Assembly: GCA_964549685.1 (NCBI GenBank)
Contig: CAZJVE010000003.1
Location: 32,344-96,343 of the forward strand
DNA from: an uncultured archaeon
GTDB lineage: Archaea; Altiarchaeota; Altiarchaeia; IMC4; QMZM01
Length of the DNA: 64,000 nt
Reading direction: 5' to 3'
Numbering within the stretch: position 1 is the first letter of the stretch; every line of letters begins with the position of its first letter. Positions 1 to 16,979 of the stretch are shown in pieces. The position numbers and the translations under genes are program-made. The notes below the pieces were generated by a model. The model saw only the letters and a list, made by a program, of their open reading frames with translations. It had not been told where the DNA came from and did not search any database.

Positions 1-675
1 GTTTCAGAGGAGAAACTGTTCCATATCCTTGTCAACGAAAAGCACCTCCTTTCCCTGTTCGCGCTTCCCAATAACCTAGAGGAGATGGTGACCGGTTTTC
101 TTGTCTCAGAGGGAGTTACTGGCTATGAGAATGTCAAGGGGATAAGGAGGGCGAACTGCGAGCTGTGGGTAAAGACAAGGGAGGATATTCCTGAGTTGAA
201 ACCGGAGCTGAGAAGCTCGGGCTGCAGCGGAATTGCGATGTATAAGGCTCCAGAGCCGGTGGAATCAAAACAGGAATTTAATAGCAAGGTGATTGTGAAT
301 TCCCTGGAATATTTCAAAAAAGCTAAGGAGTGGAAAATCACTGGAGGTACTCACTTCGCGGCCTTAATCTCGGCGGATGGAAGATTTCTGCAGGGTTTTG
401 AGGATGTGGGCAGGCACAATGCCCTGGACAAGGTCATAGGATGGGCCCTCATGAACAATCATGGTCTGGCCGACAAATTCGTCCTCTTTACTGGAAGGCT
501 CTCGACAGGGATGGTGATGAAGGCTGCGAGAGCGGGAATACCGCTGCTTGTCTCGAATACCGCCGTGCTGTATCAAGCCATTCATCTTGCTGAGGAACTG
601 AATATCACGCTGGTTGGATTCGCAAGGGGAGAGGAGTTCAATGTCTACAGCAACCTGTGGAGAATCGGGAAATAA
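1..675 (+). CDS. fdhD: Formate dehydrogenase accessory sulfurtransferase FdhD (5' truncated by window edge)
   Basis: SSGCSG, TGGTHFAA, EDVGRHNALDKVIG and TGRLS motifs; frame is open from base 1 (VSEEKLFHILVNE...). Confidence 0.9.
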   Translation, partial: VSEEKLFHILVNEKHLLSLFALPNNLEEMVTGFLVSEGVTGYENVKGIRRANCELWVKTREDIPELKPELRSSGCSGIAMYKAPEPVESKQEFNSKVIVNSLEYFKKAKEWKITGGTHFAALISADGRFLQGFEDVGRHNALDKVIGWALMNNHGLADKFVLFTGRLSTGMVMKAARAGIPLLVSNTAVLYQAIHLAEELNITLVGFARGEEFNVYSNLWRIGK

Positions 676-676
676 T

Positions 677-1960
677 TCAGCTCTCTATCTTCTTTATCTC
701 TGCCAGGACCTGCTTCAGGGTGTCCACCGTGGACTTCGTCTCCTTTAACGGCGACTTGGCAAACTTTCTGACGCGTATCGGTACGTTGTCCATTCTGTAA
801 AAGGTTCCCTCGCACTCCATCGCGTTCAGGACATCCGGGATGACAACGTTGCTGAGCATGGTCGTGGGGCAGTGAGCAACCTCAACCGAGATTAGAGGTA
901 TGTCTGCGAGATGCTCTATGGCTTCTCTGGGAAGATGGGCCCCCAAATCGGCCCCTACCACAAGGACCGCATCTACTTCGCCCCTCGCAAGCAGATCAAC
1001 TGTTGTCGTTTCGCCGGGGTTGAAGCGGGGAATTCTCCTCGAATAGTCCACTCCGAAGGGATAGCCCGAGGTCCAGGTCATAATCTGATTGAAACCTGCA
1101 ACGTTGCTGTGGCCCCTGTTTGCCAGAAGGATGAACCGTGAATAATTGTTTACGTTCTTCACGAGGCGCATCGCCTTCTCCAGGTTCCTATACTTTCCAA
1201 CGGAGCTTGCTATTCCAAGGCCCACGAAAATGACACCGTACTTGCAGGACTTCATCATCTCCGCGAGCTTCCTGACGGTTTTGGGTGGAACTCCCCCGAC
1301 TGCCTTGTCTATGTCATGGCCGTTGATTACTGCACCTATGGCTGACATCAGCTCGAAGTCCTTGTTCGGCTCTATCTGTATGTGAAGGTCGGCAAGTTCC
1401 GCGGTTGGGGTCTTTCTTGGGTCCACCACTATGATGGTCCTCTCCTGACCACCGTGCTCCCTGAAGTAGCCCCGGGGGAACAATGAATAGCGGGATAACA
1501 GACGGGGATGCGATTCAATGGGGTTGCAGCCCCAGTATATCAGTAAATCGGCCCTGTTCTTGACCTCTCCGAGGGTTGCTGATGGGAGCCCGGCCTCCTG
1601 GATGCCGAGGACTGTCGGGCCGTGGCACATTGTCGAATTTCCATCCACCACTCCACCGAGGTATTCTGCCATTTCGATTCCGACTCTCATGGATTCCGTA
1701 GAAATCTCGCTGCCCATGAAGATTAGCGGCCTCTTTGCCTTGCCGAGAATTTCAGCAGTCTTTTTGATTGCATCCTTCCAGCCGGCTTTCTTTCCGTCTA
1801 TTGTTGGAGTCAGGACTCTGTCCTTGTCCCTGAGCTTGTGGTACTTGGCCTCGCCCATGCTGCATGCATTGTAGACCTTGATATCATCTCTTGTGAGTTC
1901 TATGTCTATGTCGTCGCATGCAAGCCCACAGACCGAGCAGGTTATGTCCTTATGCAGCAT
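677..1960 (-). CDS. fwdB: Formylmethanofuran dehydrogenase subunit B (Cys ligand, not Sec)
   Basis: N-terminal CSVCGLACDD, MCHGP metal-ligand motif, TLGEVKNRAD, WGCNPxxSHPR, RGHSNVAGF. Confidence 0.93.
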   Translation of the reverse strand: MLHKDITCSVCGLACDDIDIELTRDDIKVYNACSMGEAKYHKLRDKDRVLTPTIDGKKAGWKDAIKKTAEILGKAKRPLIFMGSEISTESMRVGIEMAEYLGGVVDGNSTMCHGPTVLGIQEAGLPSATLGEVKNRADLLIYWGCNPIESHPRLLSRYSLFPRGYFREHGGQERTIIVVDPRKTPTAELADLHIQIEPNKDFELMSAIGAVINGHDIDKAVGGVPPKTVRKLAEMMKSCKYGVIFVGLGIASSVGKYRNLEKAMRLVKNVNNYSRFILLANRGHSNVAGFNQIMTWTSGYPFGVDYSRRIPRFNPGETTTVDLLARGEVDAVLVVGADLGAHLPREAIEHLADIPLISVEVAHCPTTMLSNVVIPDVLNAMECEGTFYRMDNVPIRVRKFAKSPLKETKSTVDTLKQVLAEIKKIES

Positions 1961-2462
1961 TCAGTTCACCCATGATTTTCTCAGCGAGCTGGTCTCTGTT
2001 CTCCTGGTTGATGATGAATTTCCTGAATTCTACGCCGGGGAATTTACTAGTGAATTCCTCAAGCATTTTCTTTCTGATTACGATGATTACGTCCTTCTCT
2101 GTTGCTATTGCCCTCTCGGCTTCTGGAGAGAGGCCGTCCCCTTTCCTTTCGAGAGGGCCTATCTCGTCGATGAAGACGAGGTCGGAGCCGTTTTCTATTG
2201 AGCAGTGAATTGCTTTTCTGCTAAGGGAAATTCCTTTTTTAGTTATAATATAATTTCCAACCGGAATCCCCTCTGCCTTTGAGTCCGTTGTTGCCATCTC
2301 CTCCTTTTCTCCCGTGGAGAGGTCAATGGCAGTGCTGCCCTCTCCAGCCCCAGGGCAGAGCACGCCGCCGCATTTCCTGCCGTTCTCTTCTGCAATCTCT
2401 ACTATCCTTTCGCAGAGGGTTGTCTTCCCGACTCCCGAAATTCCCGATATGAGTATTTTCAT
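1950..2462 (-). CDS. THEP1-family nucleoside triphosphatase
   Basis: Walker A GISGVGKTT, GGVLCP, Walker B VFIDEIGPLE. Confidence 0.85.
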   Translation of the reverse strand: MKILISGISGVGKTTLCERIVEIAEENGRKCGGVLCPGAGEGSTAIDLSTGEKEEMATTDSKAEGIPVGNYIITKKGISLSRKAIHCSIENGSDLVFIDEIGPLERKGDGLSPEAERAIATEKDVIIVIRKKMLEEFTSKFPGVEFRKFIINQENRDQLAEKIMGELNAA

Positions 2463-3118
2463 ATTCCTTTCACGCCCATGAGCCAGCAGAGCCCTGTGAG
2501 AAGGGCTGCAAGCTCGTAGAAGATTCCCGAGCGCACCGCCTTTTTCTGGATTAATGCCATTATGTCTCCCGCCCTGTAGCCGGCCATTACTGTAACCGCT
2601 GATAGCAGGGCGGCCTGCGTTCCGTCAGCCAGGATGAAATTCATCATGTCTGTCAGGGACATGTTCAGCCAGAATCTCGAGCCAATGCCCAGGTACTTGA
2701 AGACCATGCCGAAGCCCATATAGCTGAGGTAGGCGAAGCCCGCTCCTGTGGAGAGGTGGTTTATTATCGGTGCTTTTATCCTGTGCGTTACAGTAAGGAC
2801 GGCGCCGAAGGCCATTGCCTCTATCAGTATGGAAATCATCGGCCTGAATACCATCGGGCTGGGGCCGACTATGAAGATGTCAAATCCTTTCAGGAGTGAG
2901 GCCACAGCACCAATGCCGAGCAGGAATCCTATCCTGTTACTCGGCCGGTATGTTCTCAGGGCCGCTGACATGAGGAACGCGCCGAGGGAGAACATTATCG
3001 CTCCCTTGAGCATGAAGTGAATCATGTGCAGGAATACGCCAAGCGTGGCCTCAAACATTCCCCAGATTGAACCGAATAGTAGAATTCCAATCAGTATTTG
3101 TTTTTGTTTTTCATCCAT
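2459..3118 (-). CDS. Multi-pass membrane protein (ECF S-component-like size)
   Basis: About 6-7 hydrophobic segments; GSIWGMFEATLGxxLH motif; stop overlaps the NTPase start. Confidence 0.65.
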   Translation of the reverse strand: MDEKQKQILIGILLFGSIWGMFEATLGVFLHMIHFMLKGAIMFSLGAFLMSAALRTYRPSNRIGFLLGIGAVASLLKGFDIFIVGPSPMVFRPMISILIEAMAFGAVLTVTHRIKAPIINHLSTGAGFAYLSYMGFGMVFKYLGIGSRFWLNMSLTDMMNFILADGTQAALLSAVTVMAGYRAGDIMALIQKKAVRSGIFYELAALLTGLCWLMGVKGI

Positions 3119-3119
3119 T

Positions 3120-3518
3120 TTAATCGCCTCTCAAAATTTGTTTTTTCATCAGGTTCTCGCAGTCCAGGACAGGGTCATCCGTGCCTTCAACCTTGGCCTC
3201 CATCCCCTTGTAGAACGGGGAGCCCGAGTCAAAGGTTTCGGAGCTGATGACCATATTGGCCCAGAGGCCCCTTGGAATAAAGGCATGGCCCTTCTTCACC
3301 CCGGGGTCTGATTTCGCATGGACAGTGACAGAGCCCGACTTTGTCTTTACCTTAACGTTCTCCAGGTAGGAACCCTTTCGGTACCATACTCTCTTGAAGT
3401 CTTCGGGGTTGAGGCTGCAGAAAGCCGCCTCCTTGGTGTATTGGGGAGTCATCTTCTTTCCGCCCTTCGTTACCTTGCCCTGATTTATGGTCGAGGCTGT
3501 ATTCAGGATGACTTTCAT
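3120..3518 (-). CDS. fwdD: Formylmethanofuran dehydrogenase subunit D
   Basis: Start reassigned to MKVILNTASTINQG (ATGA overlap with fwdG stop); FIPRGLWAN and GSPFYKG motifs. Confidence 0.88.
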   Translation of the reverse strand: MKVILNTASTINQGKVTKGGKKMTPQYTKEAAFCSLNPEDFKRVWYRKGSYLENVKVKTKSGSVTVHAKSDPGVKKGHAFIPRGLWANMVISSETFDSGSPFYKGMEAKVEGTDDPVLDCENLMKKQILRGD

Positions 3519-3790
3519 TCTTCTTTTTCCTCCTCCGCAGGAATTTCCTCCCGGACAAGCTCGCCCTCGGCCAGAATTTTTATTGCCTCCAGGGGACATA
3601 CCTCCATGCAGATTCCACAGCCGGTGCATGGGGCATCGAACTCCGCCATGGCCTTGACTATCCTTATGACGCTACCGCTGTCGCCGATGCCATATCCTGC
3701 CTTGGTTGAGAGCGATGCTGAATTTGGACAGGCAACAACGCAGTTCGCGCATCCTATGCAAAGGTCCTTGTCTATTTTAACCCTAAACAT
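3515..3790 (-). CDS. fwdG: FwdG-like 2x[4Fe-4S] ferredoxin
   Basis: CIGCANCVVACP and CTGCGICMEVCP; located directly upstream of fwdD. Confidence 0.8.
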   Translation of the reverse strand: MFRVKIDKDLCIGCANCVVACPNSASLSTKAGYGIGDSGSVIRIVKAMAEFDAPCTGCGICMEVCPLEAIKILAEGELVREEIPAEEEKEE

Positions 3791-4611
3791 TTTTTTATCA
3801 GGCTTTCTGCACTTATCTGATGATACTGAACCCCCAACTCATTGGGATGGAAGCCAAATGCAATTGCAATGAGCTCGGGGTAGTAAAAAACTGGGAGTTC
3901 CATCCCGAGTCTCTTCTGGGCCAGTTCGTACTGGAGGAAACATAGCGGACAGGGGGTGCAAAGTGCATCCGCCCCTGATTCCTTCAGCTCGTTGAGCTTT
4001 AATTCAACAAGGTCGTTTGCTACCTCCTGGTCGACTGCCGCAAGGGCTGAACCGCAGCATAAGTCCCTGTGAGGGTATTCGACAACCTCCAATCCTATCA
4101 TTTTTACCAGGTCGTCCATCCGTTCAATGCAGTAATCCATTACCTTGGACGGCCTCTGGATGTGGCAGCCGTCATGGATTGCGACCTTCATCTTCATGGG
4201 GAACTGGATTAATTCTCTGGCCCTGTCAATGTTCTCGTGGATGAAATTCACTATGTGCCTGACATCGTTTTTGCCCTCGTAGCTCAGGCCTATCTTCTTG
4301 AGTTCCTTGTTGACCTCGTTCCTCTTCTTCTCGTCCTGGAGTAAATGCTTCGCATCCAGTAGTGTGCCGCTGCAGCCAGAGCAGAGCGCTATTATGTCGA
4401 GGTTCTCCTTCTCTGCGAGGGCGAGGTTCCTTGCCGCTATCGCAAGCCAGGTTTCCTCATCCATTGACTTCATGTGGGTGTTTGGGCAGCATGAAAACTC
4501 CAGGTATCTGGGTTCAACCCCCAGTTTCTTCAATACCTCTACCGATGCCTTTTCAAGCCATGGTAGCTTCGCAGGGATGAAGCATCCTGTGAATAGTGCA
4601 TGGGGTTTCAT
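3772..4611 (-). CDS. hdrB: Heterodisulfide reductase subunit B (two CCG domains)
   Basis: FTGC...SCCP...ARNLALAE...CSGC and GCH...CCG...CPLCFLQY motifs. Confidence 0.9.
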   Translation of the reverse strand: MKPHALFTGCFIPAKLPWLEKASVEVLKKLGVEPRYLEFSCCPNTHMKSMDEETWLAIAARNLALAEKENLDIIALCSGCSGTLLDAKHLLQDEKKRNEVNKELKKIGLSYEGKNDVRHIVNFIHENIDRARELIQFPMKMKVAIHDGCHIQRPSKVMDYCIERMDDLVKMIGLEVVEYPHRDLCCGSALAAVDQEVANDLVELKLNELKESGADALCTPCPLCFLQYELAQKRLGMELPVFYYPELIAIAFGFHPNELGVQYHQISAESLIKKCLGLK

Positions 4612-5072
4612 TCTGTCTTGATTTTGGATAGTTTCTTCAGGTCCTCGGGCCTTGGCTTCTTTATCTCCTCAAGCTTCAGTTCCTCCCTCCACCGGGCTGC
4701 CCGCCCTATTATCGGGAGGACAAGGCCGTCCTTCACTATTGTCGCTGCCAGGGATTTTATCCTGCCAGGACACTGATGGCCCGATTCACGGGCGTGATTC
4801 CTTGCTGCTATGAAGAGCTCGTCCGGGTCGACTCCCTTGGGGCACATCTCAGAGCATGAATGGCATGTTGTGCATAACCATAGCTGGTCCGAGTCAAGGA
4901 CTTCCTCATCTTCAATGAGGAGCCTATATATGGTCTTCCTCGGGGAGTGCTCCTCCCGGACATAACCTATCGGACAGACAGAGCCGCATTCCCCGCACTG
5001 GAGGCACTTGCCCATTATCTTCTCCGACTCCTCTTCTATGAGCTTCCTGAACTTACTCTTCCTTTTTTCCAT
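4608..5072 (-). CDS. hdrC: Heterodisulfide reductase subunit C
   Basis: CLQCGECGSVCP and LWLCTTCHSCSEMCPKGV; overlaps hdrB start; an alternative TTG start lies at 5090. Confidence 0.88.
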   Translation of the reverse strand: MEKRKSKFRKLIEEESEKIMGKCLQCGECGSVCPIGYVREEHSPRKTIYRLLIEDEEVLDSDQLWLCTTCHSCSEMCPKGVDPDELFIAARNHARESGHQCPGRIKSLAATIVKDGLVLPIIGRAARWREELKLEEIKKPRPEDLKKLSKIKTE

Positions 5073-5658
5073 CCTTGTCGAAATTCTCAAGCTTTATCTC
5101 ACCGAGGAACTTCTCCCTCAGCCTTTTCATTATCCTGGTTTCAGGGTCCTTTTTGCAGACAATCTTGATTCTCTTAAGCGCTATCGCACTGGAAGGGCAT
5201 CCAAGAGCGCAGGCGCCGCAGTAGGTGCATTTGTCAAGGTCAATCTCCACCTCCTTGGTAATCTTTATCGCATCCTCCCTGCAGAGAACCTCACATACAT
5301 CACAGAGCTTGGGGCATTTTTCCTGTTCGACTGAAATCTTGCCCTCGAATTCCATCTCCTTGGGAATTCCTTCGTTCTCGACTATAAGGATCCTCTCCTC
5401 GCCGTTTATCATTGTTTTGAATGCCTTTTTGATGCAGATTGCTGCGCAGACTCCGCAGAGAACGCACTTGTCCTTGTCGAATTTCAGGGGTGGTTCTGAA
5501 ATGTCCTCTTTTACCGATGCGCCTATCGGGTTCAGCTCCAGGGCCTCTTTCGGACACGCCTGAACGCAGAGAGCGCATCCGTTGCACTTCTCCCCGTCAT
5601 AGAGCAGCTGGACCCTTTCCTGCCACATCTCGATTGACTTTAACTCCTCGTGGGTCAT
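5053..5658 (-). CDS. fwdF: FwdF-like polyferredoxin, short form (four cluster motifs)
   Basis: Start reassigned to MTHEELK (ATGA overlap with hdrA stop); [47 protein letters not shown]. Confidence 0.72.
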
Positions 5659-8075
5659 TTTATCGCGCCCTCCTTTTTCAGCTTCTCCAAGGTGCTGGTT
5701 AATTCTTTCATGAGTCCTGCGAATTCCGCTCCCTCGGAGGCTGATATCCATGCGAGCCTGAATCTTCGTGAATCGATGCCCTTCTCCTCCAGGGCCTTTT
5801 CATACTTGTCTATTCTCTTCTCGCACTCGAAGTTTCCTGAAATATAATGGCAGTCGTGCAGGTGGCAACCAGTAAGTGCAACAATTCCGGCCCCCAGCTC
5901 CAATGCCCGGTCTATGAATTTGGTAGCTACCCTTCCGGAGCACATGACCCTTATTACGCGAAGGTTCTCGGGGTATTTGAATCTGGAGACTCCTGCCGTG
6001 TCCGCTCCTCCATAGGAGCACCAGTTGCATAGGAATCCAAGGATTTTGTCCTGGGGATTCTCTTTCAGTGCCGCCTCTATCTGGGAGAATATCTGCTCGT
6101 CGGTGAAGCCCCGCTGCTGCAATGCATCCTTGGGGCAGATGGCAACACAAGTGCCGCAGCCCTTGCAGGCGGCAGGGATTATCTCCACGGGCTTGCCCTT
6201 CTCGTGCCTTATTGCGCTGTAGGGACAGTACTTGGCGCATAAACCGCAGCTTATGCAGAGCTCCGGGTTTACCTCCGCTATGATTGAGTCGGGTTCAACG
6301 AAACCCCTGCTCATCGGGATTGCGGCTCCTGCTGCCGCGGCTCTTGCCTGTGATACCGATGCGGGAATGTCCTTGGGTCCCTGGGCAGCTCCGGCAAGGA
6401 ATACGCCGTCCGTCGGAGTATCGACAGGCCTCAGCTTTGGGTGGGCCTCCATGAAGAACCCGTCTCCTGTGCAGGAGATGTTCAGCTTTCTCTGGAGCTC
6501 CTTTGCGTCATCGGTTGGCTCAGCCCCTGAGGAGAGAATTACCATGTCCAGCTTCATCTCCTTAATCTTTCCGGAGAGGGTGTCATCAACCCTGATTATA
6601 AGTTTGCCATCCATGTCCTGTATTACATTAGAGGGCCTTCCGCGGATGAATTTCACGCCCTTGTTCCTCAGCCGCTCATAGAACTCCTCGTAGTCCTTTC
6701 CGAATGAGCGGACGTCCATGTAGAATATGTAGATGTCCAGGTCGGGATACTTCTCCTTGAGCTGGGTTGCGTGCTTCATCGCATACATGCAGCAGAAGTT
6801 CGAACAGTAGGGGTTTTCCTCGTTCCTTGAGCCGACGCACTGGATGATGCCCACGCTCTTCGGCTTCTCACCGTTCTTCAGGGTTACCTTGCCCTGCGTT
6901 GGGCCTGAGGCGTTGATAATTCTCTCGAAGTCGATTCCTGTAAGGACGTTATCGTATTTGCCGTAGCCGTATTCTCCCGTAGCATCGTGGTCCTTGAATC
7001 CAGTGGCGGCTATTATCGTTCCGACCTCCAGGTCTATTATCTCGTCCTCCTGGTCGAAATCCACGGCTTCCCTTTCGCAGACCTTCTCGCAGAGGCCACA
7101 TTCTATGCACGAGTCCTTGTCTATCGTCGCTGTCAACGGAACCGCCTGAGGGAAAGAGATGTAGCAGGCCTTTCTTGGTCCCGTGCCCCTGTCGAATTCG
7201 TTCTTGCAGATTACGGGGCATACCTCCCAGCACTCGCCGCAGCCGTTGCAGTCCTCGTTGGTATAGCGGGCCTTCTTCCTCACCTTCACACTGAAATTCC
7301 CGATGTAGCCCTCGACGCTCTCCACCTCCGAATATGCCAGTAACTCTATGTTCGGGTGGTTGCCGACATCTGACATTTTAGGACCAAGGATGCAAATGGA
7401 ACAATCTATTGTGGGGAAAGTCTTGTCCAGCATCGCCATGTGCCCTCCGATAGATGGGTTCTTCTCAACAAGGTATGTTTTGAATCCCATATCCGCCAAA
7501 TCCAGTGCTGATTGAATCCCTGCAACTCCGGCCCCTATGACGAGGGCCTTCTTAGTTACGGGGGAGCGTATCTTCGGCAGGGGCATGAGGTGCCTTGCCT
7601 TTGACACGGCCATGGCGACCAGGTCCTTTGCCTTCTCTGTTGCCTTGGCCTTGTCCTCATGGACCCATGAGCAATGCTCCCTGATGTTAGCCATCTCGAA
7701 CATGTACCGGTTCAGGCCAGCCGCTTCTATGCACTTTCTGAAGGTCGGTTCATGAAGCCTTGGAGAGCATGATGCTACGACGACCCTGTCGAGGTCAAGC
7801 TCCTTTATGTCCTGCTTTATCTCCTCCTGTCCAGAGTCGGAGCAGGTGTATTTGTTTTCCCGGGCTATTACGACGCCGTTTAGCTTGGAGGCGAATTCAG
7901 TAACGGCCTTGCAGTCGACCACCGAGGCGATGTTAAGGCCGCAGTCGCAGACATAGACGCCAATCTTTGGCTTCTCCTTGCCAGTGACAAGGTGTCCTTT
8001 ATGTACGGGGATGTCCCCTATTGAGAGCTTCGGGCCCTTTTTAGCCTTCTTCGATGTAGATTTCGCCTTTGCCAT
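5655..8075 (-). CDS. hdrA: Heterodisulfide reductase subunit A fused to a C-terminal MvhD domain
   Basis: [36 protein letters not shown] motif, DKTFPTxDCSxCIL, CVGSR...[14 protein letters not shown]; C-terminal [12 protein letters not shown]...RVMCSGR...GCHxxDCHY (MvhD). Confidence 0.95.
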
Positions 8076-8781
8076 TCTCGGACAGGTCACCTATATATTT
8101 ATTGCCTTCCTTTTTGAAGGAGGGAAGCATTTCCTCCGCCTTGCCTTTTATCGTGATTCTGCCGGCCTCCATCTCGGCCCCGGCTCTTGCTCCAGAATTC
8201 CCATCGACGATGATTTCACCGTCCTGCATCCTGAAGCCCAGGAACTGCCCGGCATTGCCATGAACGGAAATCTTCCCCCCAAGCATGCATGTTCCAAGGT
8301 TGTCTCCGACGTTGCCGTGGATTATTATCTCCCCGGCCTTCATGCCCTTCCAAGCGCCCCTGTAGGCGGAGCCGATGAAGTTTCGAGCGTTGCCTTTGAT
8401 TTCTATCCTGCCGTCTTTCATCTCCATCCCGGCCCAGGAGTCGGCATTCCCTTCCACCATGATTTTGCCGCCACTCATTCTGGAACCGAGGTGCATTCCC
8501 ACATTGCCCTTGACCAGAATTTCCCCGCCAGTCATTGCCTGGCCGATTCTTTTGACCCTAGAGCAGTCACCCTCTATGACTATTTTTATTTCAGTGGATT
8601 TATCTGACTTTTCCCCATGGATGTCGAAGTACCTGCCCAGCTTCCCGGCCTGGTTGCCCGCATAGACGTTCATGTCTTCTATCTCCTTCATGGTCTTCCC
8701 TGCGAATTTATCGGGTGAGATGCAGTCGGCTTCCAGCCCCGTTGACGGGATTTCCTTTGCCCTCAGTATTATTTCAGCCAT
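8041..8781 (-). CDS. fwdC: Formylmethanofuran dehydrogenase subunit C
   Basis: ISPD near the N-terminus; GxxMxGGxIxVxG beta-helix repeats; GSAYRG. Confidence 0.93.
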
Positions 8782-10402
8782 TTGTCTTCACCTCCACCGG
8801 ATTTGGGAGGTACTCCATGCCGACCCCATAGTTCCCAACGTTCACTGTATAGTATAGGAATCTCTTCCTGATGTCCTCTTCTATGTCGACCTTTACCTTT
8901 GGACAGACATAGTAGGTCTTTCCTATCGCTGAATCTACGACCTTTCCGCCCTTCACCACAATCTTCCCGTCCTTTATCGTACACGATGCTGAGGAGAATG
9001 CCTTCTCTATCTTCTTGCCATCCCTCTCCCCCGGACCGATATCATATATTGCAATGTTTGCGGGGTTCCCCTCCTTCAGGGAGAGGTCAAGGCCCAGCCT
9101 CTTCGCGGGACCAGCTCTGGTCATTATTGCTATTTCCTCAAGAGTTAATTCCCTGTCCAGCGAACCGAGTCCAGTCCTGCTTGATGCCCACTTGTGGCTT
9201 CTTTCCATAGTTCCGTCCCTATACTTTTTACTCATCAGCCAGGCTATAATCTTTGGGTAATGGGTAAAGACCCCTGCATTTGGATTGTCCGTTGTTATGA
9301 AAGCCTGCCAGGGGTTCTTGATTCCTAGAGCGAGCTCGAGCCCGATGGTCCACTGTACCGAGTTAACGCCGGATTTCCTGCTGTAGTAGTAAGGGACAAC
9401 GCCGCCGCTGGTTTCATTCTCTACGTCTCCATTGCTCCACTTCTGCCTGTTTATCAGGGAGAGACCGAATTCAAACGGGGCGTCAGCCGTCATGGTCGTT
9501 ACATCCCCGTAGACGACCTGACCCAGGTCAATGCTGATGTCCTTATTCCTGTTTACCGCCATTGCGAGTTTCTCCGCCCCTGAGCTGAACGTCTTCCATG
9601 AGTCCCCGCCATAGGAGCTGAACTGCAGATGCGTAATGTGCAGGGGGGAGAATTTCATCGTCTTTATCGCTGTTTCAAAGTTCCCAGGATGCCCGAGGTT
9701 GTTCGTATGCAGATGCACCGGGTGGGGGAGCTTCAGTTCCCTGTTGATTCTGATTAGCTCCTTGATAATCTCGGCAGGAGTTACCTCAAAGTATGGTACA
9801 GGGTCATCAAGGGATTTGACGTTCTTGCCCCAGCCCCATGCGAAGGTTCCACCGGGGTTCGCCGCCTTTATACCATAGGTCTTTGTCCTTGAGAGCATCC
9901 ATGCTATGAGCGATGTTGCCTTTTCCTTCTCTCCCTTGGAGATGTACTCTATGAGCTGGTGGTTATTGCCAAGGAGGAGGAGACCCAGCTTGTCTATTAT
10001 TGGGGTATCGATGAATTCCTCATGGGTGTGGATGGCCGTTAATGGAGGAACCGCTGGCTCATTCACAGTAGTATAGCCCATCTCCGCATACTTATAGCCG
10101 GTTGCCCATGTGCTTGGAACGATAAAACCAGACCCGGCCCTGAATTTGCCCCTTGCCGGAATTTCGTTTCCCAGATGGTCCTCAGGCCGGAATAAGCGCC
10201 CCATGTTTACCTTGGCCCCTGCGAAATGGGAGTGTATGTCCACACCCCCTGGGAAGACGGCCTTGCCTGATGCGTCTATTGTCTTTGCATTCTTCTGAGC
10301 CTTAGCTGCTATCTTCCCCCCGCTAATGAAGATGTCCTTCTCTTCCCCATTGAGTCCGTTGAGGGGGTCGAAGACCCGGCCGTTCCTGATTACGAGGTCC
10401 AT
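8774..10402 (-). CDS. fwdA: Formylmethanofuran dehydrogenase subunit A
   Basis: GGVDIHSH, GYTTVNEPA, NPGG, HLHTNNLG, THLQFSSYGG, TMTADAP, TTDNPN, TRAGPAK. Confidence 0.95.
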   Translation of the reverse strand: MDLVIRNGRVFDPLNGLNGEEKDIFISGGKIAAKAQKNAKTIDASGKAVFPGGVDIHSHFAGAKVNMGRLFRPEDHLGNEIPARGKFRAGSGFIVPSTWATGYKYAEMGYTTVNEPAVPPLTAIHTHEEFIDTPIIDKLGLLLLGNNHQLIEYISKGEKEKATSLIAWMLSRTKTYGIKAANPGGTFAWGWGKNVKSLDDPVPYFEVTPAEIIKELIRINRELKLPHPVHLHTNNLGHPGNFETAIKTMKFSPLHITHLQFSSYGGDSWKTFSSGAEKLAMAVNRNKDISIDLGQVVYGDVTTMTADAPFEFGLSLINRQKWSNGDVENETSGGVVPYYYSRKSGVNSVQWTIGLELALGIKNPWQAFITTDNPNAGVFTHYPKIIAWLMSKKYRDGTMERSHKWASSRTGLGSLDRELTLEEIAIMTRAGPAKRLGLDLSLKEGNPANIAIYDIGPGERDGKKIEKAFSSASCTIKDGKIVVKGGKVVDSAIGKTYYVCPKVKVDIEEDIRKRFLYYTVNVGNYGVGMEYLPNPVEVKTNG

Positions 10403-10501
10403 GTTTTTGGCATGATTTTTCCATATAGATAGCAGAACCCAGGTTAAAATATAGGGTTAGATGCTTTATTTGAATAAGCATATCCGGAAAAAAACAAGGA
10501 C

Positions 10502-10915
10502 TTACTTGTGCTTCTCTATCTCGCCCTTCTGCCATTCAACTGCAGCTTCGCCCTTCATGAGATTGTTCACATCATCAGGGCTGCTCATCTCAATCTTGAA
10601 TACCCAGCCCTCTCCGTAGGGGTCCTTGTTGATGGTGGTGGGGTCATCATACAGCTTCTCATTCGTCGCGGAAACCTTTCCTGAGACCGGGGCAAACATC
10701 TTTCCAACCCACTTGCCTGTTTCTATCGTTCCGACCTCGCCGTCCTGGGAAACCTCATCTCCATCAAAGGGCATCTCGACATAGCTAACGTCTCCCGCCA
10801 TCTTCTGCGCAAAGTCCGTAAAGCCAATAGTAGCAACGTTTCCTTCAATCTTCGCCCACATGTATTCCTTGTGATAATAAAGGTCATCGGGCATATTGTA
10901 TCCTTCAACGTCCAT
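10502..10915 (-). CDS. gcvH: GcvH-fold lipoyl-carrier protein (LbpA-like ETGKWVG motif)
   Basis: PDDLYY...W...GFTDFAQ...ETGKWVG...APVSG...NKDPYGEGW. Confidence 0.88.
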   Translation of the reverse strand: MDVEGYNMPDDLYYHKEYMWAKIEGNVATIGFTDFAQKMAGDVSYVEMPFDGDEVSQDGEVGTIETGKWVGKMFAPVSGKVSATNEKLYDDPTTINKDPYGEGWVFKIEMSSPDDVNNLMKGEAAVEWQKGEIEKHK

Positions 10916-10974
10916 TTTATCTCATCAGATCGTAATTATTATTAAGAACTGAGAATAAATAAAACTGAATCCAA

Positions 10975-11172
10975 ATGGCAGACATACCTCTAGCATCGGT
11001 AGAACGCCTGATGAGAAAGGCAGGAGCTGATAGGGTTAGCGTTGACGGGGCAAAGGAGCTGAGAGACACTCTGGAAGAGATTGGTAAGGGGATTAGCGAG
11101 AGAGCAGCAAAGTTCGCAAAGCACGCCGGCAGAAAGACGGTCAAGGCAGAGGACGTGAAGCTTGCAAAATAG
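10975..11172 (+). CDS. Archaeal histone (HMf type)
   Basis: IPLASVERLMRKAGADRVS...AKHAGRKTVKAED. Confidence 0.95.
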   Translation: MADIPLASVERLMRKAGADRVSVDGAKELRDTLEEIGKGISERAAKFAKHAGRKTVKAEDVKLAK

Positions 11173-11204
11173 ATTTAAAGTCCCGAATTCTAATCTCTAA
11201 CAGG

Positions 11205-11669
11205 ATGCAATCAAATTCCGGAAAGGCCCAGTCATCTGTCGAATATTCAATAATCTACAGCCTTGGTGTTGTGGTGATAATTCTTGCCATTATTATCGTG
11301 TGGCGGATGGATGCCTTCACTCCGGAGGCCCCGCTGAAGGGAAATGCCGGCTTCTCCCAGCTCGAGATTACGGATCAGGCAGCCTACGTGGACTCGAGCA
11401 GGCTTGTTCTTGCTGTGAGAAATGATGCAGGCAATGATATTAAGGTTACAAGGACTGATGCCAACATCGAGAGTATATACTGCTACAACTCTTCCCCGAT
11501 TACAATGACTCCGGGAATGAAAACGCTTGCAGACCTGAGGTGCTCAGATTTTCCAGACGACTATGTTGGGGGATCTTACTACAGGGCCAATGTAACCATA
11601 AATTACACAAACCTTGAAACGGGGAATATCCACTACAGCAAGGGCATGGTGTGGGGTGGGGTTGAATAG
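11205..11669 (+). CDS. Class III signal-peptide (type IV pilin-like) protein
   Basis: KAQSSVEY followed by a hydrophobic helix and a beta-rich domain with two Cys. Confidence 0.7.
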   Translation: MQSNSGKAQSSVEYSIIYSLGVVVIILAIIIVWRMDAFTPEAPLKGNAGFSQLEITDQAAYVDSSRLVLAVRNDAGNDIKVTRTDANIESIYCYNSSPITMTPGMKTLADLRCSDFPDDYVGGSYYRANVTINYTNLETGNIHYSKGMVWGGVE

Positions 11670-11700
11670 ATTTAATAACATAAAACAAAAATAATACGAA

Positions 11701-12729
11701 ATGGTAAAAGTAACGGTTGTTGGGGCATCCGGCTATCTTGGGGGTGAACTCCTCCGGGTTCTTGTGAATCATCCAAAGGTCAATGAGATAGAGGCTGTCT
11801 CAAGGACACATGCGGGGAAGGCAGTCTCTACAATACACAGTAATCTGGCGGACGTCTTTGACGAAAAATTTATGGATTTTAAGGCCGAGAAGATTGGCTC
11901 AGACGTTGTGTTCTTTGCCTCTCCCCCGGGGGAGTGGCTGAAGAAGGTCTCCATGCTTCTGGACAAGGGCATGAAGGTAATTACGCTGGGGGGGAAGTTC
12001 AGGATTCAGGATGCCGAGTTGGACGAGAGAATCTACCCCGACTATAAGAACAAAAGGCTCCTGGAGGAAAGGGTCTACGGTTTGCCTGAGGTATACAGAA
12101 AGGAGATAAAGAATGCAAGATTTGTTACAAACCCCGGCTGCTATCCAACCTCCGTAATCCTCGCCATGATGCCCCTGGCGAAGCTTGATGGGGATGTTGA
12201 GCTGGACAAGGTTGTGATAAACTCAGTCTCCGGAAGCTCCGGGGCCGGGGCAGACACATCCAAATTTTTACACCACCCGGAGGTCTCCGGGAATCTCAGG
12301 CCATACAAGCTATTTGTGCATAGACACAAACCGGAGATGGACTTCATCCTTGGGGATGTGTTCAATGCAACGGTGAATGCCCTCTTCACCCCCTCGGTGG
12401 GGGACTTCGCGAGGGGAATTCTGAGCTATGTAACCGTCTTTTCGGCGGGAATCAATGAGAATTTAACAAAGCATTACAGGGAATTCTACGCCAAGGAGCC
12501 GTTCGTCAGGATTATCGACCAGGACATTGAGAACGTTCCAAATCTCAAGGACGTTATTGGCACGAATTTCTGCGACGTTGGGGTGAATTTCAACTCTGAC
12601 AGGATTATCATTCTGAGCGCGATAGACAACCTGCTGAAAGGGGGTTCAGGCCAGGCAGTCCAGAACATGAACCTGATGCTCGGCTTTGATGAAAAGGCGG
12701 GGCTGAACCTGGTCGGGGGGCGTCCCTAA
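11701..12729 (+). CDS. argC: N-acetyl-gamma-glutamyl-phosphate reductase (ArgC/LysY family)
   Basis: GASGYLGGEL, YGLPE, NPGCYPT, SGSSGAG, HRHxPE, IDNLLKGGSGQAVQNMN. Confidence 0.92.
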   Translation: MVKVTVVGASGYLGGELLRVLVNHPKVNEIEAVSRTHAGKAVSTIHSNLADVFDEKFMDFKAEKIGSDVVFFASPPGEWLKKVSMLLDKGMKVITLGGKFRIQDAELDERIYPDYKNKRLLEERVYGLPEVYRKEIKNARFVTNPGCYPTSVILAMMPLAKLDGDVELDKVVINSVSGSSGAGADTSKFLHHPEVSGNLRPYKLFVHRHKPEMDFILGDVFNATVNALFTPSVGDFARGILSYVTVFSAGINENLTKHYREFYAKEPFVRIIDQDIENVPNLKDVIGTNFCDVGVNFNSDRIIILSAIDNLLKGGSGQAVQNMNLMLGFDEKAGLNLVGGRP

Positions 12730-12770
12730 AGCATATTTTAACCCTTAATCGAATAAATAAAAACTTTAAG

Positions 12771-13193
12771 ATGGCAATAGCAAACTTCAGGCTTGAGAAG
12801 ATAGCCGGTGAGAGAAATGATAAGGATGCGAAGAACGTAGAAGTAGTCTCGAACTTTAAGATAAGGTCCATGAGTAAGGAGAAGAACAAACGGATGGGCG
12901 ATTATCTCAGGGTGAATTTTGAGTTCGACATAAGCTACAAACCCTCTCTCGGCAAGATTGAGATGGAGGGCGTCCTCTGGTATCAGGATTCTGACCTCAA
13001 CAAGAACGTGAAGGACAAGGGGAAGAAGTTCGAGCTGGATTCCAAGGTAGTGAAGGAGATTTCCACCGCAATCATAAGGGAGTCGCTACTGGAGTCTCTT
13101 GACGTGTCGAAAAAGCTGAGGCTTCCAGCGCCGATAAGGCTGCCCAAGGTCAACGTGGAACCAAAGCAGGTGGAGTTTCTGAAGGCTTCGTGA
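12771..13193 (+). CDS. Conserved archaeal hypothetical protein (possibly SecB-like fold)
   Basis: Beta-strand pattern FEFDISY...IEMEG, a C-terminal helix and LPAPIRLP; clean ORF. Confidence 0.6.
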   Translation: MAIANFRLEKIAGERNDKDAKNVEVVSNFKIRSMSKEKNKRMGDYLRVNFEFDISYKPSLGKIEMEGVLWYQDSDLNKNVKDKGKKFELDSKVVKEISTAIIRESLLESLDVSKKLRLPAPIRLPKVNVEPKQVEFLKAS

Positions 13194-13288
13194 GTTTCCT
13201 GATGCACATCTAATTCTGGGGAATTCCTTTGTGTTAATGGACAATTCTTGCTAGTTAGTTATTTATTCCAGAAATAGTATATTATCAT

Positions 13289-13426
13289 ATGGTGGAGGGC
13301 CTGTGCGACATCTGCGGCGGGGCAGCAGCGATTCAAAGCTGCAAGCTCTGCGGAAAGAGGATATGTTCTTCGTGCATGACCGAGAGAGGGGTCTGTAAGG
13401 TCTGTCTGTCAGGGATGAAATACTAA
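13289..13426 (+). CDS. 45-aa zinc-finger microprotein (four CxxC), not in the ORF track
   Basis: Manual translation MVEGLCDICGGAAAIQSCKLCGKRICSSCMTERGVCKVCLSGMKY*; ends 1 nt before the next ATG. Confidence 0.8.
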   Translation: MVEGLCDICGGAAAIQSCKLCGKRICSSCMTERGVCKVCLSGMKY

Positions 13427-13427
13427 A

Positions 13428-14417
13428 ATGAGAGTTTGTCTCTATCTTGAGCTTGAATCGAAGATGAGGGGGAGCGGAATCGGAGCCGCCATAAAGAACC
13501 AGAGGAGAGGGTTGGAGCTGAATGATGTCGAATATACGAGCGACCTGAATGAAGAATTCGACATCCTCCATACGAATTCTATCGGCCTGAACTCTCTCAG
13601 AGTGGCTAGAGGGATGAAGAAAAAGGGGAAGAAGGTCGTCATGCATGCCCATACAACGGCAGATGATTTCAGGAACAGCTACAGGTTCAGCAATGTCATA
13701 GCGCCCTTTCTCAAAAAATATCTCAACTACTATTATAACCACGCCGACCTCGTTCTTTGCCCCTCAGAGTATACGAAGGGCGTGCTAGAGAAGGCGGGGG
13801 TTAAAGCCCCCATAATACCGATAAGCAACGGCATAGACATAGAGAGGTTTAAGTTCTCCAAGAAGAAGAGGAGGGAATTCAGAAAAGAGTTTGAACTGGA
13901 GGGAATTACTCCCCTCTCAGTTGGCCATGTATTCAGGAGGAAAGGTGTATCGACCTTCACCCGTCTCGCTGAAAGGCTTCCCAACAGATTCGTCTGGGTC
14001 GGCAGGAGATACAAGAGGATGGAGGACCCCTCAATTGCCAAGCTGATAAAGAACGCGCCCAGTAACTTCATACTCATACATTTCATCAAGGACATTGTCT
14101 CTGCCTATTCGGGCTCGGACATATTTCTGTTTCCCAGCCACTGCGAGAACCAGGGCATAGTTATTCTGGAGGCGAGCTCCTGCAGGATGCCCATTATAGT
14201 AAGGGATTTGCCAGTCTATAAGGGCTGGTTGGAAGATGGAGTTAATTGTCTCAAGGCCAGGAACGAAGGGGATTTCAAGAAAAAACTGAAAATATTGATA
14301 GAGGACGAGAAACTAAGAGATAAACTGGCCAAGAACGCCTACAAGATGTCGAGGGAGCACTCCCTCCAGAAGGTAGGTAAAAAACTCAAGGAGATATACT
14401 CTGGGCTTCTGGAATAG
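13428..14417 (+). CDS. GT4 glycosyltransferase (glycolipid synthase-like)
   Basis: HAHTTADDF, CPSEY, ISNGID, FLFPSHCENQGIVILEA. Confidence 0.88.
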   Translation: MRVCLYLELESKMRGSGIGAAIKNQRRGLELNDVEYTSDLNEEFDILHTNSIGLNSLRVARGMKKKGKKVVMHAHTTADDFRNSYRFSNVIAPFLKKYLNYYYNHADLVLCPSEYTKGVLEKAGVKAPIIPISNGIDIERFKFSKKKRREFRKEFELEGITPLSVGHVFRRKGVSTFTRLAERLPNRFVWVGRRYKRMEDPSIAKLIKNAPSNFILIHFIKDIVSAYSGSDIFLFPSHCENQGIVILEASSCRMPIIVRDLPVYKGWLEDGVNCLKARNEGDFKKKLKILIEDEKLRDKLAKNAYKMSREHSLQKVGKKLKEIYSGLLE

Positions 14418-16592: not shown

Positions 16593-16850
16593 CTATCTAT
16601 GTGATGCCCTGCGGTTCTTGAACCACAGTTTTGTGCCTCCCGAGGTCTCAATCCTTCTCGATGCTATGGCGTTCCTTATCCTGGGTTTCAGCTCATCGAG
16701 AACGCCATTATTGCTATCCTCGAGAGCAGTAAGAATAATGGATATCAACTCCTGAAATTCATCATCGTCACTATATCTTTTTGAATAACCAGTGCATACC
16801 TCTTCCAGGCGCTCCGTCCTGTTCCTCTCCAAAAGGCTTAGCACGTCCAT
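16593..16850 (-). CDS. Small hypothetical protein (85 aa)
   Basis: Likely start MDVLSLLER at 16850 (upstream sequence looks promoter-like); same strand as the PAS gene. Confidence 0.5.
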   Translation of the reverse strand: MDVLSLLERNRTERLEEVCTGYSKRYSDDDEFQELISIILTALEDSNNGVLDELKPRIRNAIASRRIETSGGTKLWFKNRRASHR

Positions 16851-16899
16851 GAAGATATAGTGGCTTGCTAAGACCATTATAATGACCACCCACCCCATT

Positions 16900-16953
16900 G
16901 TATTGGTTACCAATACTGGTAACCAACAGAGTATATATGGATATACATATATA
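16900..16953. promoter_or_regulatory. Palindromic operator-like sites in a divergent promoter
   Basis: GTATTGGT-T-ACCAATAC (16900-16916), a second TGGTAACCA (16917-16925), and TATATATG-N6-CATATATA (16932-16953). Confidence 0.55.
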
Positions 16954-16979
16954 AAAGGGGGAAATTCCATTATTTAATA

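Follow-up and report, generated by a model that had tools for sequence, protein, structure and literature searches.

In this study, we investigated a gcvH-like gene at 10502-10915 in a 64,000-nucleotide stretch of DNA (the window) from an uncultured archaeon of the phylum Altiarchaeota, where it lies upstream of an operon for formylmethanofuran dehydrogenase (Fwd) and heterodisulfide reductase (Hdr). The gene encodes an orphan lipoyl carrier of the H type, which belongs to a distinct and widespread clade, referred to here as the ETGKW clade, and the most consistent genomic partners of this clade are disulfide reductases of the CCG/Hdr type. The lack of glycine-cleavage partners together with the recurrent adjacency to Hdr-type genes leads us to suggest that lipoamide may be a disulfide of Hdr-like enzymes outside the methanogens; that the lipoamide of ETGKW carriers is a substrate of their Hdr-type partners is, in our judgement, a proposal whose prospects are evenly balanced. 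Genes for HdrABC, MvhADG and HdrA2B2C2 occur widely among non-methanogenic archaea and among anaerobic bacteria unable to make coenzyme M (CoM) and coenzyme B (CoB). A recognisable lipoyl-carrier clade that travels with Hdr-type genes across phyla provides a concrete and assayable candidate for the disulfide that they turn over, and is also relevant to the question of how the archaeal Wood-Ljungdahl pathway obtains its energy where methanogenesis is lacking.

A putative lipoyl carrier apart from glycine cleavage

10502..10915, minus strand: gcvH-like gene of the ETGKW clade (T1), 137 aa, putative lipoyl-Lys68, no Cys, isoelectric point (pI) 4.37

The open reading frame (ORF) of the carrier starts with ATG at 10915 and ends with TAA at 10504-10502. 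Its product matches Pfam GCV_H (PF01597; 134.1 bits, cut-off 22.2) and lies above the cut-off of NCBIfam PRK01202 (137.5 bits, cut-off 117), falls 0.15 bit short of the gcvH equivalog TIGR00527 (115.7 bits, cut-off 115.85), and has GcvH proteins as its nearest solved structures, down to E = 2.5e-27. Residues 64-71 read IETGKWVG. In an HMMER alignment with Thermotoga GcvH (1zko/2ka7), Lys68 (codon AAG at 10714-10712) is paired with the lysine of ESVKAAAD, which we take to be the lipoylated residue there, and Lys68 is invariant in 16 of 16 members of the clade, from which we infer that the carrier is lipoylated on Lys68. There is no Cys among its 137 residues, and members of the clade have 0-1 Cys per protein with no conserved pair; the pI of 4.37 is close to the clade median of 4.46, the whole-protein pI being a crude proxy for surface charge. 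The lipoyl-Lys context and the lack of Cys are as a previous sequence-only reading of the window had described them.

The same reading had noted that gcvP, gcvT and gcvL are missing from the window, and this holds well beyond it. The host assembly is an Altiarchaeota metagenome-assembled genome (MAG) of 1.17 Mb in 27 contigs with a completeness of 84.97%, and across the whole of it neither GcvT (GCV_T) nor GcvP (GDC-P) was found. A search of the host genome for a lipoamide dehydrogenase (Lpd) gave nothing above the cut-off, the best match to the profile being a disulfide oxidoreductase on contig C10 (459-aa open frame, 140.6 bits). An E2 lipoyl domain (Biotin_lipoyl) was likewise not found in the host genome, in which two GCV_H and two LplA genes are present, and the two H-type proteins are the sole lipoyl acceptors in the host inventory. 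The second GcvH-family gene, on contig C23, is directly followed by a LipS1-like radical-SAM gene, which at 213.7 bits is slightly below its cut-off of 230, and by a thioredoxin reductase (TrxR)-like gene; LplA, a second radical-SAM gene and a gene of the M23-like type are found on its upstream side. A lipoate ligase and a LipS-type enzyme, which the sequence-only reading had listed for checking, are thus both encoded, the latter as the LipS1-like gene. Its suggestion that the host may lack CoM and CoB was borne out in so far as mcrA, ComA and ComD were not found in the 85% complete genome, the aks genes of CoB synthesis being outside the search. The [NiFe] hydrogenase large subunit and FrhB/FdhB were not found in the host genome either.

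A survey of 61 genomes of the phylum gave a similar picture. GCV_H was detected in 46 of them, GcvT in 15 and GcvP in 13, and all GcvT and GcvP matches are confined to one family (f6, 21 genomes), in which gcvT, gcvH and gcvP occur together in gcvT-H-P clusters. In the carrier's own family, GCV_H is present in 19 of 21 relatives, and GcvT and GcvP are each found in none of the 21, five of which are listed at a completeness of at least 90%; a full glycine cleavage system that would need the carrier was therefore not found in the family.

We then placed the carrier in a maximum-likelihood tree of 60 GcvH-family rows, LbpA references not being among them, in which four clades were marked. The ETGKW clade (26 rows, support 99/94) contains the carrier, orthologues from five further Altiarchaeota families, one Aerophobetes and one uncultured bacterium, and has homologues from Bathyarchaeia as its sister group (support 92/77). 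The ESVKSVS clade (12 rows, support 100/96) consists entirely of f6 sequences, all of which adjoin gcvT/gcvP. Since the carrier falls in the first of these clades, apart from the second, it lies outside the bona fide GcvH proteins of the phylum. The remaining two are the ESVKWSG clade (7 rows, from class-level relatives, f9) and the ETIKSV clade (11 rows), which includes the second host copy and is always found inside a cluster of LplA/LplB, radical-SAM, LipS1 and M23-like genes.

Linkage of the ETGKW clade to Hdr-type genes

A scan with the clade alignment, using one genome per species, returned 80 ETGKW loci, of which 24 are archaeal and 56 bacterial, the latter including Desulfarculaceae, Aerophobetes, Caldisericota, WOR-3, Atribacterota, Desulfosporosinus and Thermoanaerobacteraceae. 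Neighbouring genes were clustered and representatives checked against Pfam, and a link was counted when a CCG gene lay on the same strand within 7 kb. Such a gene is present at 29 of the 56 bacterial loci (30 with one cut ORF) and at 3 of the 24 archaeal loci. The CCG background in five of these genomes is 7-46 domain hits, at about two per protein, per 1.1-5.3 Mb, so that the chance of a CCG gene in a 14-kb window can roughly be estimated at 2-7%. Any Hdr-like part was seen at 34 of the 56 bacterial loci, and the 22 without one include several short contigs. LplA adjoins the ETGKW gene at 16 of the 56 bacterial and 3 of the 24 archaeal loci, and at none of the 80 loci was a GcvT- or GcvP-like neighbour found.

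The contexts of the ETGKW gene fall into at least six architectures: malic enzyme-FumA-FumB-H-LplA-HdrC-HdrB-HdrA-FeS protein-FAD_binding_2 protein; HdrA-like-HdrC-HdrB followed at some distance by DsrE-DsrF-DsrH-H; GlcD-HdrD-LplA-DsrEFH-H; H-LarA-GlcD/HdrD fusion; E1-E2-LipB/radical-SAM-H-GlcD-HdrD-H-radical-SAM pair; and H-LplA-LutA-LutB. The first of these, with an SdhB-like FeS protein, is conserved at six loci from Aerophobetes, Caldisericota and others. It looks like an Hdr-coupled fumarate reductase in which, by analogy, a lipoyl protein would take the place of the CoM and CoB of the methanogen thiol:fumarate reductase.

Of the Bathyarchaeia sister group, 15 loci were examined; the group includes one from the complete-genome record of 'Ca. 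Bathyarchaeum tardum'. At 10 of the 15 the order is H-pyridine-nucleotide disulfide oxidoreductase-MvhG-MvhA, and one further locus is cut after the oxidoreductase. Five of these 10 continue with HdrA(-HdrC-HdrB), four with unrelated genes and one reaches a contig edge. In the flanks of these loci, neither a gcvT-like nor a gcvP-like gene was detected. 'Candidatus Bathyarchaeum tardum' is available as an enrichment culture, so that work at the bench could be possible.

Within Altiarchaeota, the clade is connected with a second type of Hdr-like assembly. In one genome of the host's own family (G025) and two of f6 (G032 and G050), the ETGKW gene comes first in a same-strand cluster with the order c31-c30-Fd-Fd-NapH-HdrC-like-CCG-c9, which encodes a protein of 440-480 aa without family match, a small FeS-like protein, two ferredoxins, a NapH/MauN-type membrane ferredoxin, an HdrC-like protein, a CCG (HdrB-like) protein and a Cys-bearing membrane protein. 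This membrane cluster is present in 10 of the 61 phylum genomes and is headed by the ETGKW gene in three. The copy of the membrane HdrBC/NapH-type cluster in the host is located at C3:24829-31977 (6830-13978 of locus L096) and stops 367 nt before the window, which places the carrier gene, the Fwd-Hdr operon and the membrane cluster within about 19 kb; in this copy the protein without family match has 470 aa, and a 4xCBS protein is encoded in addition to the shared parts. The host has three CCG proteins, two of which are encoded within 13 kb of the carrier gene. In f6, only G032 and G050 (2 of 21) have the membrane cluster, an HdrB-like gene and an ETGKW copy beside the GcvH of glycine cleavage type. 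Across the 61 genomes, ETGKW and HdrB-like genes are both present in 22, ETGKW alone in 2, HdrB-like alone in 5 and neither in 32, a co-occurrence that is descriptive only, since relatives are not independent samples.

The Fwd-Hdr operon and its HdrB protein

The sequence-only reading had placed the carrier 99 nt upstream of fwdA on the same strand, which is correct, the strand being the minus strand. The genes that follow have the interleaved order fwdA-fwdC-hdrA2(fused MvhD)-polyferredoxin-hdrC-hdrB-fwdD-membrane protein-NTPase-fwdB, also on the minus strand:

10403..10501, minus strand: spacer between carrier and fwdA, 99 nt, with a T7 run at 10494-10488 and a TATA-like box at 10460-10443
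8774..10402, minus strand: fwdA, formylmethanofuran dehydrogenase subunit A (TIGR03121, 720.5 bits, cut-off 392.75)
8041..8781, minus strand: fwdC (TIGR03122, 274 bits, cut-off 130.65)
5655..8090, minus strand: hdrA2 with fused MvhD (FlpD) domain (PF02662 match at residues 683-804) and extra ferredoxin domains (NF040770, 1128.6 bits, cut-off 1100)
5053..5751, minus strand: FwdF-like polyferredoxin (profile match)
4608..5090, minus strand: divergent hdrC-like gene, eight invariant Cys (TIGR03290, 79.6 bits, cut-off 160)
3772..4611, minus strand: hdrB-like gene with two CCG domains (TIGR03288, 218 bits, cut-off 345)
3120..3629, minus strand: fwdD, family match beginning at residue 38
2459-3118, minus strand: membrane protein, 219 aa, between fwdD and fwdB
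1950-2462, minus strand: NTPase, between fwdD and fwdB
677..1960, minus strand: fwdB (profile match)
1..675, plus strand: fdhD, sulfurtransferase for a Mo/W-pterin enzyme, truncated by the window start

The arrangement of Fwd and Hdr genes as one interleaved operon implies direct delivery of electrons from the bifurcating flavin to CO2 reduction. The closest named relative, a Candidatus Altiarchaeota MAG, is 96% identical with unchanged gene order. The 37 residues that precede the family match of the fwdD ORF form a Gly/Arg-rich N-terminal extension, and translation of fwdD probably begins at the Met of position 38 (near 3518), which would leave about 250 nt between hdrB and fwdD without an assigned gene.

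The window HdrB has kept every cluster cysteine: C41, C42, C77, C80, C149, C185, C186, C221 and C224 are invariant or nearly so among 25 homologues, and Pfam CCG, the motif that binds the non-cubane [4Fe-4S] clusters, is matched twice. The equivalog scores of both HdrB and HdrC are far below the cut-offs given above, indicating divergent proteins. In the HdrB structure 5ODR, Arg14 and Arg240 contact the phosphate and Arg201 the carboxylate of CoB, the backbone NH groups of Gly46 and Gly198 bind the sulfonate of CoM, and Phe233 lines the tunnel (PMC13261682). HMMER alignments of five solved methanogen HdrB proteins show that Arg14 and the CCGAGGGVR loop with Gly198 and Arg201 are kept in all five and Arg240 in three. 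In pairwise sequence alignments with these proteins, the window HdrB has Lys15 in place of Arg14, a loop CCGS--ALA with a two-residue deletion and Ala in place of Arg201, and Leu in place of both Arg240 and Phe233; its four full-length orthologues have the same short loop without Arg. This divergence of the pocket fits a substrate other than CoM-S-S-CoB.

The sequence-only reading had also called for a structural model of HdrBC with the carrier. The complex of HdrB, HdrC and carrier, each entered as an alignment, was folded in three runs and with three controls, and gave a median interface score (interaction prediction score from aligned errors, ipSAE) of 0.52 (runs 0.53, 0.14 and 0.52), the best control scoring 0.00. 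The predicted local distance difference test score of the partners was at least 88 and the agreement of contacts between runs at least 11%. In the calibration of the procedure, the mark was reached by 58 of 80 solved complexes and 2 of 110 mismatched pairs, with 7 of those solved complexes and both mismatches at or below 0.60. The model hints weakly at a contact between HdrBC and the carrier.

Proposed mechanism and its standing

According to the model that we favour, a GcvH-fold lipoyl carrier would have departed from glycine cleavage, and its lipoamide would serve as dithiol/disulfide substrate of CCG (HdrB-type) iron-sulfur reductases. Two candidate partners could be considered in the host. 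One is the HdrB that belongs to the soluble FwdABCD-HdrA2(MvhD)-polyferredoxin-HdrCB machine, whose genes directly follow the carrier gene; the other is the membrane HdrBC/NapH-like complex, whose genes lie shortly before the start of the window. In Hdr chemistry that is coupled to the reduction of CO2 by Fwd, the lipoyl-H protein would then provide the disulfide arm in place of CoM-S-S-CoB. The contact of the carrier with HdrB, the direction of electron flow and the recycling of the carrier are elements of the model that we infer. That HdrB cycles a lipoamide disulfide, as the sequence-only reading had proposed, is plausible in view of the Hdr linkage of the clade and the divergent HdrB pocket, and at the level of the clade it stands on firmer ground than the letters of the window could reveal; however, the link to fwdA on which it had built is restricted to one genus, and the idea itself had already been published.

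An extended form of this model can be envisaged, in which a lipoamide cycle takes the place of CoM-S-S-CoB in non-methanogenic anaerobes and the carrier shuttles between the membrane HdrBC/NapH complex and the soluble HdrA2B2C2(MvhD)-Fwd complex. This would be analogous to HdrDE and HdrABC in methanogens, and reducing power from the membrane would drive the reduction of CO2 to formylmethanofuran. The carrier could even be the mid-potential electron donor that is bifurcated, neither a hydrogenase nor an F420 module having been found in the host. The same class of carrier would serve Mvh-Hdr in Bathyarchaeia and the Hdr-fumarate-reductase in Aerophobetes and Caldisericota. If true, such a cycle would name the 'unknown disulfide' of Hdr outside methanogens, but in this complete form we think it unlikely to be correct.

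Several observations weigh against a lipoamide-Hdr partnership. The gene directly precedes the fwdAC-hdrA2-polyferredoxin-hdrCB-fwdDB operon only in the host's own genus (two loci); the fwd-hdr operon is present in G022 and G019 without a gcvH-like gene upstream of fwdA, and G025 and G014 have a partial operon and no gcvH-like gene in the stretch examined. Within the own family the neighbours of the carrier orthologue vary, with Ftr at three loci, FMN reductase and an HD protein in one genus, and LplA/LplB at one locus. The adjacency to fwdA is thus a genus-level accident of gene order, and we rejected it as a general rule; the sequence-only reading had held that its proposal falls if the linkage to hdr/fwd is not conserved and, taken narrowly, this linkage is indeed not conserved. 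In the spacer, the T7 run directly follows the stop codon of the carrier gene, and the TATA-like box before fwdA is kept in two same-genus loci whose flanks differ (a comparison made by eye). The former resembles a terminator and the latter a promoter, which suggests that carrier and fwdA are probably separate transcripts, a caveat that the sequence-only reading had itself raised. In the wider survey, 21 of the 24 archaeal ETGKW loci have no CCG gene within 7 kb. The pocket comparison is one of pairwise sequence alignments in which Methanosarcina HdrB2 is not included, and this protein is reported to reduce CoM-S-S-CoB (as cited in PMC8407392). The fold hints weakly at a contact, and one of its three runs scored 0.14. 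No electron donor module for HdrA2 was found in the host and no route for recycling the carrier was identified. Each absence from the host is provisional because the genome is 85% complete.

A further difficulty is thermodynamic. The standard potential of lipoamide is about -0.29 V and that of CoM-S-S-CoB about -0.14 V, so that lipoamide, lying far lower, would provide little driving force as the high-potential arm of bifurcation. Together with the missing donor and recycling partners, this leaves the cycle open.

Alternative explanations

The best surviving alternative is that the carrier has a general thiol-redox or antioxidant function, in which the lipoyl-H protein is reduced by a pyridine-nucleotide disulfide oxidoreductase and feeds AhpD-type, peroxiredoxin-type or other thiol proteins, its Hdr neighbours being some of the clients or a coincidence. 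The Lpd-DlaT-AhpD-AhpC system of Mycobacterium provides a precedent. In the class-level relatives of f9, a GcvH-like gene of the ESVKWSG clade is found beside a Nox/CoADR-like reductase, an AhpD-like CMD protein, a glutaredoxin-domain protein, LipA and LplA, and the host has homologues of the reductase (on C10) and of the AhpD-like protein (on C20). The Bathyarchaeia gene is directly followed by the same type of reductase, orthologues in one genus adjoin FMN reductase as described above, and the second host copy has a TrxR-like gene after it. Lipoylated proteins have also been described to aid in the defence against reactive oxygen species (PMC10332631). However, the f9 context belongs to a different clade, the dominant conserved partners of the ETGKW genes are CCG/Hdr-type genes and a dedicated LplA rather than peroxidases, and no bona fide Lpd was found in the host. 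We therefore consider this explanation improbable, if still to be taken seriously.

A somewhat less probable explanation is that the lipoyl arm serves to deliver persulfide sulfur to Hdr-like sites, or to take it from them, as in sHdr-LbpA, rather than undergoing plain disulfide cycling. The sHdr-LbpA system is the sole pair of Hdr and lipoyl protein with genetic proof (PMC6067878), DsrE/F/H genes flank the ETGKW gene at 7 of the 56 bacterial loci, LipS1-type lipoate assembly is common to the host and LbpA organisms (PMC10332631), and NadA, a cysteine desulfurase and a NifU-like gene precede the membrane Hdr-like cluster of the host, the last two immediately. The features of the carrier itself do not agree with such a function. 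LbpA proteins have two conserved Cys, near the N- and C-terminus, some archaeal LbpAs being exceptions (Cao et al., 2018, eLife, PMC6067878), whereas the carrier has none and its clade no conserved pair; they have a more basic surface and a pI above that of GcvH, a pI below 4.5 marking GcvH-like proteins in the 2026 preprint, and that of the carrier is 4.37. LbpA is encoded in or next to the shdr cluster hdrC1B1A-hyp-hdrC2B2 with DsrE/TusA sulfurtransferases and receives its modification from a dedicated sLpl(AB) with LipS1/LipS2 rather than from canonical ligases. No DsrEFH-like ORF was found in the host genome with bacterial seed sequences, TusA not having been searched, and the neighbouring Hdr is an HdrA2(MvhD)-polyferredoxin-HdrCB assembly interleaved with fwd, not an shdr cluster, in an anaerobic autotroph. 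The proposal of the sequence-only reading that the protein is an LbpA-type carrier consequently fails on the features tested.

Less probable again is a role as scaffold or relay in lipoate assembly, the H protein being mainly the acceptor at which lipoate is assembled before its onward transfer, like GcvH in Bacillus and mitochondria. Such a relay role of GcvH has been described (PMC10332631), and would be consistent with the frequent adjacency of LplA reported above and with loci of the Desulfosporosinus type, which place the gene among LipB-radical-SAM, radical-SAM and E2 genes. Against this, no E2 or other lipoyl domain that could act as recipient was found in the host, the copy in the assembly cluster is the other paralogue, of the ETIKSV clade, and the linkage to Hdr would be left unexplained.

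That the carrier is an ordinary GcvH, working in glycine cleavage or as part of a glycine synthase, with T, P and L genes that the assembly failed to capture, is very unlikely indeed and was rejected, for although the profile matches, the nearest solved relatives and the incomplete genome could be read in its favour, gcvT and gcvP are absent from the host and from 21 of 21 family relatives, the sister family that has T and P uses a different H clade within its gcvT-H-P clusters, and T- or P-like neighbours were found at none of the 80 ETGKW loci.

Comparison with known systems

Of lipoyl proteins that resemble GcvH and act together with an Hdr-like complex, sHdr-LbpA is the established example (PMC6067878). 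As in the system described here, a GcvH-fold lipoyl protein outside glycine cleavage is tied genetically to an Hdr-like complex with CCG subunits, in organisms without CoM and CoB that have a dedicated lipoate ligase and LipS1/LipS2-type assembly (PMC6067878; Tanabe et al., 2023, PMC10332631). The present system differs in the missing N-/C-terminal Cys pair, the acidic pI and the DsrEFH-like genes, of which none was found (TusA not searched), and in that an MvhD-fused HdrA2 is interleaved with Fwd in a host that is an anaerobic CO2 fixer and not a sulfur oxidiser.

The concept of a lipoyl disulfide for Hdr is not new. It has been published for Culexarchaeia, for which it was proposed, as a proposal only, that the lipoyl disulfide of GcvH is a substrate of HdrB/HdrA2B2C2 (Kohtz et al., 2022, ISME Commun, PMC9723716). 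In the Ehe-HdrA2B2C2 cluster of these organisms, GcvH likewise lies together with HdrB and HdrA2B2C2, in an archaeon that is not a methanogen and is without full CoM/CoB synthesis, but the partners there are a membrane [NiFe] hydrogenase, SdhA and CdhA, whereas here they are Fwd and a NapH-type membrane complex, and the phylum is another. In a literature search that did not cover subscription-only papers, the Culexarchaeia paper was the only proposal found of a lipoyl-Hdr pairing for organisms other than sulfur oxidisers, and no link of Altiarchaeota or Bathyarchaeia Hdr to a lipoyl protein was found. In a comparative paper on Altiarchaeota, CoM-S-S-CoB or persulfides are put forward, and words that start with 'lipo' do not occur in the text (PMC8407392).

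The operon also resembles the bifurcating Hdr-Fwd/Fmd supercomplexes of methanogens (PDB 7BKB family), in which FwdABCD is found with polyferredoxin and HdrABC. It differs from these in that Mcr, markers of CoM synthesis, Mvh/Vhu hydrogenase and FrhB/FdhB were not found in the host genome, and in that the window HdrB lacks the CCGAGGGVR loop and the Arg201 of all five solved HdrB proteins. A last parallel is found in the Wood-Ljungdahl clusters of clostridial acetogens, where gcvH and lpdA stand among CO2-fixation genes with no obvious local role of the H protein in glycine cleavage (PMC8515935). These clusters differ in being bacterial and folate-based and in having a true dihydrolipoamide dehydrogenase, and a coupling of lipoamide to methylene-tetrahydrofolate reductase tested negative, and the authors of that study favour a role in glycine cleavage (PMC8515935).

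Further observations

The lipoate-assembly cluster in which the ETIKSV copies lie was seen on contig C23 of the host (two loci) and at seven further loci (L081-L087), and encodes LplB-like, LplA, radical-SAM, LipS1-like and M23-peptidase-like proteins besides the ETIKSV GcvH-like protein. We know of no role of an M23-like protein in lipoate assembly. In one genome (G024), an hdrC-hdrB pair adjoins such a cluster, which ends in the ETIKSV copy.

In three Altiarchaeota genomes, a conserved small protein of about 95-125 aa without a Pfam match is encoded next to Ftr and the ETGKW gene. Paralogues of it are present in the host at 16593-16970 of the window (minus strand) and on contigs C15 and C11.

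Divergent from the carrier gene, an archaeal histone gene is located at 10975-11172 of the window (plus strand; 65 aa, PF00808, 55 bits). The start codons of the two genes are about 60 nt apart, and they therefore probably share a bidirectional promoter region.

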